Of a DNA stretch of 64,000 nt, positions 1,269 through 58,520 are shown in pieces. Within the stretch, counting starts at the first letter, position 1; every line of letters starts with the position of its first letter. The position numbers and the translations under genes were made by a program. The stretch is from Octopus sinensis (taxonomy: Eukaryota). The notes beneath the pieces are model-generated. The model saw only the letters and a list, made by a program, of their open reading frames with translations, searched no databases and was not told the DNA's origin. The stretch is from contig NC_043006.1 of assembly GCF_006345805.1 (NCBI RefSeq), forward strand, positions 14,570,001 to 14,634,000, read 5' to 3'.

Positions 1269-1388
1269 TCACACACACACACACACACCACACACCACAT
1301 ATGTTATATGTATATATATATATATATCTATATATATATATATATACCAATAATAAATATCAATTTTTTACCCTAAATTAATTTTATG

Positions 1389-1442
<54 letters not shown>

Positions 1443-1783
1443 GTAATATATACTATATATATATATATATATATATAGAATGTAATATATATATATATAT
1501 ATATAATGTATATATATATATATATATATATAATAAAATTAATATTATATATATTATATATATAATGTATATTATATATATATATAATGTATATATAATA
1601 TATATATATATAATGTATATATGTATATATATATATATTAAGTATATATGTAATATATATATATATAATGTATATATGTATATATATATATATATAATGT
1701 ATATATGTATATATTATATATATAATGTATATATGTATAATATAATATCTATAATGTATATGTATATATATATATATAATGTA

Positions 1784-1828
<45 letters not shown>

Positions 1829-2464
1829 GTTATATATATAATATATATGTATATATATGATATCTTATGTATATATATGTAATATATATGTATATATATA
1901 TATATATATATGTAATATATATATATATATGTATATATATATATTATATATATATATATATAATATATGTATATATATTAATATATGTATTATATATGTA
2001 TTATATATTATATATATATGTAATATAATATGTATATATATATACCTATATATATATCATACATATATATTACCATATATATACATATGTTATTATATAC
2101 TTACATATATATATATAAATATATAATCATATATAGTATTATATATATATGTATATATATATACATATATATATATACATATATATATATACATATATTA
2201 CATATGTTATATATATATATACATATATATATATACATATATATACATATATATATATATGTTATATCCATATATATAATACATATATATACATATATAT
2301 ATATATGTATATATACATATATATATATACATATATATACATATATATATCTATATGTATATATACATATATATATATACATATATATATCATATATATA
2401 TATATATGTATATAAACATATATATATATACATATATATACATATATATATATATGTATATACA

Positions 2465-2497
<33 letters not shown>

Positions 2498-2683
2498 GTA
2501 TATACATATATATATATACATATATATACATATATATATATATGTATATATATATACATATATATATATATGTATATATATACATATATATACATATATA
2601 TGTATATATACATATATATATATACATATATATACATATATATATATATGTATATATACATATATATATATACATATATATAC

Positions 2684-2748
<65 letters not shown>

Positions 2749-2774
2749 ATATATATGTATATATATATATATAT

Positions 2775-2863
<89 letters not shown>

Positions 2864-2900
2864 GTATATATATATATTATATATTATATATGTATATATA
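1228..2900. repeat. Compound microsatellite: (CA)n, then degenerate (TA)n with TG/CA interruptions
   Basis: Seen directly; source of the YI-rich spurious ORFs. Confidence 0.97.
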
Positions 2901-2992
2901 AAATATTATTAGAGACAAAACCACTATTTGCAAAACAAACAAGGAAAGACTTAATCAATACATAAAATTTTAATAAATAGTCAAAAAAACCG

Positions 2993-3035
2993 CCACTACA
3001 ATCGTTTCTTGTCTTGATCGACAATCTTCAGGTGG
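2993..3035 (-). ncRNA. Minimal type I hammerhead ribozyme (mirror copy)
   Basis: Exact reverse complement of 3082-3124 in the left arm of the palindrome. Confidence 0.85.
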
Positions 3036-3081
3036 ACTTCCAATAAGTCAGTTTCAAATTTGAAACTGACTTATTGGAAGT

Positions 3082-3124
3082 CCACCTGAAGATTGTCGAT
3101 CAAGACAAGAAACGATTGTAGTGG
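3082..3124 (+). ncRNA. Minimal type I hammerhead ribozyme
   Basis: CCAC-CTGAAGA-TTGTC GATCAA GACAA-GAAAC GATT GTA-GTGG. Stem I CCAC/GTGG, 5-bp stem II, minimal stem III with near-palindromic CGATTG, GUA cleavage site (after 3120). Confidence 0.85.
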
Positions 3125-3291
3125 CGGTTTTTTTGACTATTTATTAAAATTTTATGTATTGATTAAGTCTTTCCTTGTTTGTTTTGTAGTTTTTGTCTCT
3201 AATAATATTTTATAATATTTTACTATAAAATTGGATTTAATCCTAAATCTGATTTTTTCCCTGTAAATTTGGATTTATTCCCTAATATTTA

Positions 3292-3324
<33 letters not shown>

Positions 3325-4774: not shown

Positions 4775-5261
4775 TGTAAATATGTGTTCATGTATATCTC
4801 TTACGGGAATAGAACCTAGTAGCCACTCGACCTGCTCTTAACAGTAGCTAAATCCTCATTAAATTTTTACTCCTCCATCTAGAATCTTTGAGTACTAATG
4901 TTGTCCCAAAACACATATTGCACAGTAGAAGACATTGTGGCCTTGCCGGGCGCACCTTCTATCACAGGGTGCTTTAGTACTGCATAATTTGAGGATTTTA
5001 AACAACGCAGACGCATATATATATATAAATTTCTTTTCTACACACATGTAATTATGTATACAACCATACACACACATGCACGCATTAAGCCTTTTTTTTT
5101 ACACACATCTACATCTCTATACAGTTTATTTAATTCAGACCCATATTGTTACCTACCACTCATTTTTCGTCAAGAATAACTATATATAGTTATCTGGGTG
5201 TTTAATAGAAATGTGTATATATTAATATATTTCGTTAAACACACGGTCATATATATATATA

Positions 5262-5392
5262 CAGGGTGTCCCAAAAAAATGTATACACACCTTAAATAAT
5301 TGTAAATTTGTTATTCTTTGTAAGCCTAGTACTTATTCTATCGTTCTCTTTTGCCGAACCACTATGTGTATACATTTTTTGGGGACACCCTG
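5262..5392. mobile_element. Tc1/mariner-type MITE with an internal SINE fragment
   Basis: TA-CAGGGTGTCCCAAAAAAATGTATACACA ... TGTGTATACATTTTTTGGGGACACCCTG-TA: ~27-bp TIRs, TA flanks. Confidence 0.85.
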
Positions 5393-6169
5393 TATATATA
5401 CAGATATATTTGTTTTTATGTGAGGTGTATATATAACAAAACACTTGTGCATTAAAATCTAAAGATCACTCAGTACTTTTTTTAGTTCTTTAGCAATTGG
5501 TACCATTTATTAATTGTTACTAAGGAAATATGTTGGCAGTAACTTCGAACTTTCGGTTTAAAAGCCGTCATAAGACTTGCCGAAACTTCGAAGTTACTGT
5601 CAGTTTTTCCCCCCTTGTAACAATGAAATTATTTATGTCTGTGTTGGTGTGTGTACTGAACCGATTCTTGTTTCGTTTTACACATAATTATATATGTCTA
5701 CAGGCTGGCTTGGTACGTCAACAGTTGTGGAAACAGACCATGTTTCTCTGCAATATTTAGTTAATGAAAGACGGGCCAAATATTTTTAAAAGCAAGTGAA
5801 AAAGTGCCGAAGAGGAAGAAGTAAACCTCATTTTTTTTTCTCTCCTTATTTTACCTTTTCTGAATTATAATTTGTTTTTTTCTTCTTCTTTCTTTGTTGT
5901 CGTGTTTGCTTTATTATTAAACCATATGAGAACAGTTGACATTATGCACTCACATTACATATATATATATATATATCTACGTAATATATACACCAACTCC
6001 CATCGGTGTAGTCATCATATACTTATGTACATGCACCCTCTTCTTGTCGGCAAGCAAAGCCGAAACTTCGAAGTCACTATCAACGTTTTTTTCTCTATGT
6101 AGAGATTAATAAATGTGCTCTATATTAAAAAGTATTGAGTAATCATTTCAGTTTAATGTCAAATTGTTT

Positions 6170-58156: not shown

Positions 58157-58195
<39 letters not shown>

Positions 58196-58475
58196 TGTCT
58201 TCACTCGTTTATTACTGTTATTCTACTATTTTAATGGCTGTCCAGAAGTCTTTCATCACACATCTGTGACCTCTTCAGTGACACTTTTCATTTCTGTGTG
58301 TGTTCATGCTCCACCCACTCCATTGTTTTGCTAGAAGAACAGAATGGAGTGAGTGGAGCAAGAACACACACGGAAATGAAAAGTGTCACTGAAGAGGTCA
58401 CAGATGTGTGATGAAAGACTTCTGGACAATGGACAGCCATTAAAATAATGGAATAACAGTAATAAATGAGTGAAG

Positions 58476-58520
<45 letters not shown>

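Follow-up and report, generated by a model that had tools for sequence, protein, structure and literature searches.

Inverted pseudo-LTRs (pLTRs), tails, hammerheads located in pLTRs and a 5'-UTR intron are already known in Penelope-like elements (PLEs). Two points are stated as open in the literature, namely the head-to-head repeats of these elements and the retention of introns through an RNA step. The significance of PLE intron retention is called unknown in the accessible text of PMC8557442, and PMC3846280 proposes self-priming on an antisense template for both observations and asks for discriminating evidence. In vitro, the protein of PAc (a Poseidon of Anolis) cut both strands and extended them from two internal RNA sites, with a dimer predicted (PMC11167929). 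In the same source, ribozyme cleavage was dispensable and uncut hammerhead RNA served as template. Dimer-acting PLE hammerheads with low activity have been described (PMC4209133), and the octopus repeat annotation in PMC13282606 lists Penelope-like families, with ribozymes unmentioned in its accessible part.

The window, as the whole 64-kb stretch of octopus DNA analysed is called here, contains a palindrome that the initial annotation had described as a coding-free, head-to-head ribozyme cassette. Each arm was instead recognised as the spliced 5' leader of a coding PLE. The preferred reading, with a probability of roughly two in three, is that the palindrome represents two inverted spliced-leader copies of such an element in (TA)n, made when the enzyme of the element copied one capped sense RNA twice.

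Palindrome geometry and hammerhead motifs

The arms were perfectly complementary over 128 bp on either side of 3058/3059, with the first mismatch at 2930/3187, which confirmed the loop-less 256-bp perfect palindrome of the initial annotation. Its setting in (TA)n was likewise confirmed by TRF, with period-2 tracts on both sides. The next-longest perfect palindromes in the window had arms of at most 31 bp, all of them (TA)n. The two arms were unequal, the left one spanning approximately 2897-3060 and the right one 3057-3296, and their outer ends (~2897-2901 and ~3296) both lay in (TA)n. The perfect stretch stops at 128 bp because the right arm alone has a 7-nt shortening at ~3187, private to it relative to 29 other copies. 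The window copy also lacks +1..+7 of the leader. The parts are as follows, in window coordinates.

1305..2900, no strand: (TA)n-rich target tract, left flank (TRF period 2)
2897..3060, minus strand: short arm, leader positions ~+8 up to ~+176, where the proximal 3' end runs into (TA)n (palindrome and copy comparison)
2993..3035, minus strand: mirror copy of the minimal type I hammerhead, with cleavage predicted after 2997 (descriptor search)
3057..3060, no strand: self-complementary AATT (+8..+11 of exon 1), common to both arms and forming the loop-less centre (sequence)
3057..3072, plus strand: exon 1 remnant (+8..+23); the same letters precede the GTAAGT donor in coding copies
3072/3073 (mirror 3045/3044), plus and minus strands: exon-exon junction (comparison with coding copies)
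3057..3296, plus strand: long arm; its spliced leader begins at +8 and stops at the distal 3' end (~+253), before the ORF start (copy and parent comparison)
3082..3124, plus strand: minimal type I hammerhead whose loop III (ACGAUUGU) is self-complementary, with cleavage predicted after A3120 (descriptor search)
3187..3193, plus strand: private 7-nt shortening that ends the perfect palindrome (comparison with 29 copies)
3211..3296, plus strand: "tail" between the proximal and distal 3' ends, ~80 nt, long arm only (copy comparison)
3297..3324, no strand: (TA)n target tract, right flank (TRF)

Both hammerhead motifs, which are predicted ribozymes, were of type I, with stem I CCAC/GUGG, CUGAAGA, a 5-bp stem II and GAAAC-GAUU-GUA; the CUGANGA and GAAA..UH core and stems I and II of a minimal type I hammerhead were thus all present by sequence. 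The intact motif claimed for each strand was recovered by a descriptor search, which gave exactly two matches in the 64-kb window, at 3082-3124(+) and 2993-3035(-). Of the model searches suggested with that claim, only the descriptor part succeeded: Rfam returned 0 matches in the window at gathering score and, at E ≤ 10, no hammerhead and 18 weak hairpin-type matches.

Loop III was self-complementary in all variants, GATT (with a wobble), AATT and GATC, as well as in a sister family described below, with a computed duplex energy of -5.8 to -10.0 kcal/mol. Such a loop III has been described for dimer-acting PLE hammerheads (PMC4209133), and the earlier reading as a minimal dimer-type hammerhead was upheld. 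The computed monomer hammerhead fold (-5.9 kcal/mol) was less stable than an alternative fold (-10.2 kcal/mol), and any activity of the hammerhead of this family is predicted to require a dimer. A ribozyme cut as the determinant of an arm end was rejected, as the arms run intact across the cut site.

Several other repeats were observed in the window. At 455-597, a second (TA)n-flanked head-to-head palindrome carries a CTGATGA...GAAAC hammerhead-like core on both strands; its arm also occurs at another genomic locus (L260), and it probably belongs to another PLE family. A third such palindrome, with CTGAAGA...GAAA cores on both strands, lies at 58169-58505. Short inverted-repeat elements without hammerhead cores are present at 5254-5400 and 1038-1227, the former with TA-flanked ends, which we take to be MITE-like. 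Several dispersed short repeat families (D11-D20), probably SINEs, occur within 15884-62764.

A dispersed family of spliced leaders and its coding parent

When the 2.7-Gb genome of the animal was searched with the right arm, 693 first-look candidates were obtained, of which 40 were scored; 75 matches resulted, many of them standing as inverted pairs. At 29 other loci, the long arm was nearly identical, started at most 10 nt upstream of the query start and had one fixed 3' end, and the inverted arm, where present, stopped at another fixed position, about 80 nt short of the first. Perfect palindromes are known as long-read assembly artefacts, which would speak for a fold-back at this locus. Two family-wide fixed ends combined with varying centres are, however, not what an artefact would give: each window arm ends at such a fixed site, the two arms are unequal in length, a private indel distinguishes them, and dozens of loci share the layout with differing centres. 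An assembly artefact is therefore hardly credible.

For the pair analysis, a set of 66 loci was used, corresponding to the first 100 listed of 1,405 spliced-arm matches. In this set, the 5' ends of spliced arms clustered at +1 to +12, with 102 of 124 arms starting at or before +12. The short 3' end lay at +176 in 50 of 65 non-long arms, and the long 3' end reached the reference end (+253) in 58 of 59 arms. Among the matches listed, (TA)n followed within a few bases after the long ends, and the (TA)n flanks of family copies agreed with the (TA)n targeting suggested in the initial annotation. Centres were loop-less at 10 of the 66 loci, six of the 66 having the same AATT centre as the window palindrome. 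The same two 3' ends, with arms of 0.2-6 kb, were found in 20 regions around the first intron-retaining matches.

Variants of the layout were also observed. At two loci (L029 and L187), approximately 600 and 250 nt of unrelated DNA had been captured between the two arms. Other loci (L069-L083 and L098) contained tandem arrays with a period of ~220-310 bp, composed of leader and ORF-start fragments and mostly devoid of a hammerhead. A sister family (L039:733-1258; L251-L280) had a longer stem II, a GATC loop III and a conserved tail; a search for it gave 791 candidates, and the family showed the same fixed 5' end and the same long and short 3' ends. Its parent was not found, and a splice donor search with one pattern (GTRAG within 14 nt) gave 0 matches.

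The family also bears on a functional head-to-head cassette at the window locus, which the initial annotation had pictured as switching between silenced dsRNA and self-cleavage. Both cores are intact, and any read-through RNA of the whole palindrome is predicted to form a long hairpin (-253.5 kcal/mol). A purpose-built cassette regulated in this way found no support. Intact cores are what a very young repeat family should show, the centres vary freely, many partner arms are truncated before the core, and the less stable monomer fold also speaks against such a cassette, which we regard as highly improbable. The window copy is best read as a transposition by-product, one of hundreds with variable centres, and the locus itself is most likely inert.

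In each arm, a 23-nt exon 1 directly adjoined the hammerhead exon, the GT-AG intron of 1.3-1.8 kb being absent. In coding copies, an AG acceptor precedes the hammerhead exon, and the 23 nt that open the short copies are found 1.3-1.8 kb upstream, where they run into GTAAGT; the intron measured 1,813 nt in one locus (L093) and ~1.3 kb in another (L219). Each of the three exon-1 variants seen in the short copies was recovered as a donor among coding copies. A trans-spliced leader was rejected as the source of the 23-nt 5' piece, which lies in cis before a GT donor. By comparison of these sequences, the arms are intron-less cDNA copies of a spliced mRNA leader, ending at a putative start site.

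Exact whole-genome counts were 1,405 spliced and 1,151 intron-retaining arms, the units being arms and not insertions; some parents carry exon 1 twice. An unspliced arm that is truncated within the intron is assignable to neither RNA type. When arms reaching +6 were considered, only 24 of 806 spliced arms continued upstream of +1, compared with 565 of 591 unspliced arms. No spliced junction or spliced partner was found in 20 intron-retaining loci.

The parent was reached through one copy (L002) with a slightly longer tail. An exact search for that tail gave 82 matches, many of which continued into an ORF whose ATG lies ~55 nt beyond the long 3' end. The suspected PLE link was thereby substantiated, and the joining of arm copies to a GIY-YIG and RT reading frame, named in the initial annotation as a check, was observed in what appears by its motifs to be such an ORF. 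Read by eye, natural parent copies carried the RT motifs DIDNYY, MGAPDS and YRDD and an endonuclease-type VVY..YIGS..R..QH. The Hydra-clade features DKT (QSDKTRN), the CxCX5C linker (CTCRDKSNC) and CxxC plus CxH near the end (CYLC, CRH) were present, as were (TA)n insertion and a canonical hammerhead. KWK stood at the place of the RWK motif of that clade, and the repeat units of 4.1, 5.6 and 7.4 kb exceeded its usual length (<3 kb, a general and not a strict trait). Among general PLE features, partial tandems forming pLTRs, an inverted 5' copy, a one-sided tail, and a hammerhead and 5'-UTR intron in the pLTR were found, the intron being recognised from its GT-AG ends and from spliced genomic copies. 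Judged by these motifs, the parent appears to be a coding Penelope-like element with Hydra-clade signatures.

The longest ORF had 491 aa, and no uninterrupted full-length ORF was present in the 20 regions fetched or the other loci examined. Pfam gave no RT match on four parent ORF pieces. A homologue search for longer proteins yielded one match among 7,668 candidates; this nearest longer protein was an unnamed cnidarian protein (P0001), 34% identical over 462 aa. When the genome was screened for the GIY-YIG family, the 147 matches at 30 loci did not include the parent, and the main 781-aa GIY-YIG family had no match to the RT part of the parent ORF. Assignment to Neptune, considered from the N-terminus, was dropped in view of the Hydra definition. 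Two further observations concern one parent locus: a duplicated promoter/exon-1 block of ~1 kb (L093:5886-7943), and an asparagine-rich stretch between RT and endonuclease (L093:3630-3930), like those in rotifer Penelopes.

Paired arms and the proposed copying of one RNA

The 66 loci comprised 52 head-to-head pairs, namely 49 long+short and 3 long+other, with no long+long and no short+short combination. Outside these pairs, a short arm stood alone in 8 cases and a long arm in 4, and 3 layouts were of other kinds. Together with the window copy, these pairs supported the inverted pLTR-like layout that had been suggested earlier. As short arms also occurred alone at 8 loci, the proximal site can be concluded to prime on its own. 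In one pair (L135), the arms do not overlap.

Concordance of variants was evaluated in 49 pairs with an overlap of at least 30 bp, using 1,000 shuffles. Recurrent variants were concordant in 66 and discordant in 10 cases, compared with shuffled means of 21 and 110, and the lowest discordant count in 1,000 shuffles was 81. Five non-recurrent substitutions were common to both arms, and the unshared differences numbered 48 in total. In 11 of 52 pairs, each arm held sequence absent from the other, the short arm reaching further 5', which indicates that neither arm was copied from the other; in 6 of 52, the long arm reached further 5'. Shared variants could alternatively arise by gene conversion within palindromes, and asymmetric centres could be post-insertion deletions.

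One alternative is that two RNAs of the same source locus, perhaps held together via the self-complementary loop III, each templated one arm. RNAs of the same locus would share variants, and loop III remains self-complementary in the GATT, AATT and GATC variants with the duplex energies given above. This alternative is nevertheless unlikely, given the absence of long+long and short+short pairs among 52, the lack of any spliced+unspliced mix at the 66 spliced and the 20 unspliced loci, even though the RNA occurs in both forms, and the five non-recurrent substitutions common to both arms.

Self-priming, previously proposed for PLE palindromes (PMC3846280), would also account for shared variants. 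Here, a single cDNA would reach the 5' end, snap back and copy itself, the second end joining the target via TA microhomology, and repeated template jumps at some centres (L015, L017) fit this course. Short arms that stand alone and have the same fixed end (8 of 66 loci), pairs in which neither arm contains the other (11 of 52) and loop-less centres (10 of 66) speak against it, and we consider it quite improbable. Its antisense-template version is contradicted by the sense-strand splice junctions in the pairs, which argue against an antisense template in the window family.

The 5' junctions were examined for the letter preceding +1. By hand count, it was G in 59 of the 100 spliced junctions listed among 114 matches, the remainder being 14 A, 10 T and 17 C, of which 11 represented the full upstream sequence. 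G preceded +1 in 0 of 56 donor-bearing copies. In a second junction set, G was found in 30 of 45 non-read-through junctions (two rows being tandem duplicates); 20 of these G could also be supplied by the partner arm, untemplated inserts accounted for 7, and 3 belonged to solo or other joins. A or T without a template is seen as well. Full-length L1 insertions are reported to show a cap-derived extra G (PMC11702581), and from the DNA ends we infer +1 as the putative start site and the cap as the probable origin of the extra G in this family.

In the preferred reading, copying of one capped RNA twice, the RT-endonuclease would nick both strands of (TA)n, and each nick would prime at one of the two fixed leader sites (~+176 and ~+253) on one sense RNA. 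Both cDNAs would extend to the cap, which would at times be copied as an additional G, and their 3' ends would anneal via microhomology, followed by fill-in. The AATT centre of the window palindrome probably reflects such a cDNA-cDNA microhomology join. The hammerhead would be carried along passively, uncut. Two rounds of copying on a single RNA would require an RT that lacks RNase H and is capable of strand displacement.

The position of the priming sites upstream of the ORF means that spliced mRNA would yield only ORF-less copies of ~250 nt. Copying of the ORF would need priming in the next downstream pLTR on read-through RNA, and unspliced read-through RNA, whose downstream pLTR retains the intron, would template long and full-length copies. 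The intron would then persist in the family because full copies come from read-through RNA in which it is kept. Exon 1 in read-through RNA, far from the cap, appears to be rarely spliced (24 spliced versus 565 unspliced arms), and cap-dependent first-exon recognition would account for this.

It is also conceivable, if rather unlikely, that the short copies propagate themselves as a non-autonomous family resembling retrozymes or SINEs, with an internal exon-1 promoter and mobilisation in trans; this would be compatible with the proposed joining. Spliced arms outnumber unspliced ones, leader-derived tandem arrays exist, and for a sister family no parent was found. In D. virilis, the promoter maps between start site and intron, and an intron-less construct was still transcribed (PMC2377424); by analogy, an internal promoter could let some short copies move again. 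Against such a family, all five main haplotypes among 93 spliced arms also occurred among 65 unspliced arms and no haplotype was specific to short copies, as expected of by-products, and the window copy lacks +1..+7.

The wider reading, which we hold to be evenly balanced, is that these insertions are missing processed products of the PLE cycle: a capped spliced sense template, one RNA copied twice from two fixed sites, would provide a structural reason for intron retention, spliced mRNA giving only dead-end leaders and unspliced read-through RNA propagating the element. If general, many "solo" hammerheads and palindromic mini-elements of animal genomes would be such leader copies. The family represents ~1,400 natural products with a sense splice junction, a putative start-site end, and one long and one short 3' end. 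It ties two-site priming in vitro to genomic structure and offers a short, defined RNA (~250 nt) for reconstitution.

Comparison with known systems

No description of spliced, start-site-terminated PLE copies was found in open PubMed Central and bioRxiv. With the Hydra-clade PLEs of Craig et al. 2021 (PMC8557442), the parent shares DKT, the CxCX5C linker, CxxC plus CxH at the endonuclease end, the canonical hammerhead and (TA)n, and its RT motifs resemble the Hydra alignment in the supplement. It differs in having KWK instead of RWK and a unit of 4-7.4 kb instead of <3 kb, and its protein start differs from that of Hydra-1_Obim in the same supplement. For the Hydra clade, the accessible text of PMC8557442 mentions neither a 5'-UTR intron nor spliced short copies.

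The inverted pLTR and tail insertions of Penelope/Poseidon (PMC8557442, PMC3846280, PMC2377424) are alike in their head-to-head arrangement and in a tail on one end only. The start site and intron are also located in the pLTR, with the hammerhead just downstream of the intron (also PMC4209133). In contrast, the insertion in the window family consists entirely of spliced leader, the tail measures ~80 nt and not 30-40, and the intron 1.3-1.8 kb and not 75 bp.

With PAc (PMC11167929), the family would share two adjacent internal RT start sites that define the tail, the cutting and extension of both strands, and an uncut hammerhead RNA as template. The PAc sites, however, lie inside the ORF and show no strand preference, whereas those of the window family lie in the 5' UTR and are represented by one of each per insertion. 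L1 twin priming (PMC11702581) resembles the proposed copying in that both target ends prime on one RNA, with microhomology joins and an extra G at full-length 5' ends. Twin-primed L1 pieces abut with little overlap, whereas the two arms of the window family are both copies of nearly the whole of one stretch.

Non-LTR retrozymes (bioRxiv 10.64898/2026.07.22.740005), as far as the accessible text describes them, are likewise non-coding, PLE-derived and equipped with a type I hammerhead. Their units are arranged as head-to-tail tandems, whereas the window family forms dispersed head-to-head pairs, an arrangement found in the window copy and all 52 pairs. Its bounds, moreover, would be the putative start site and the RT start sites, and not ribozyme cuts.
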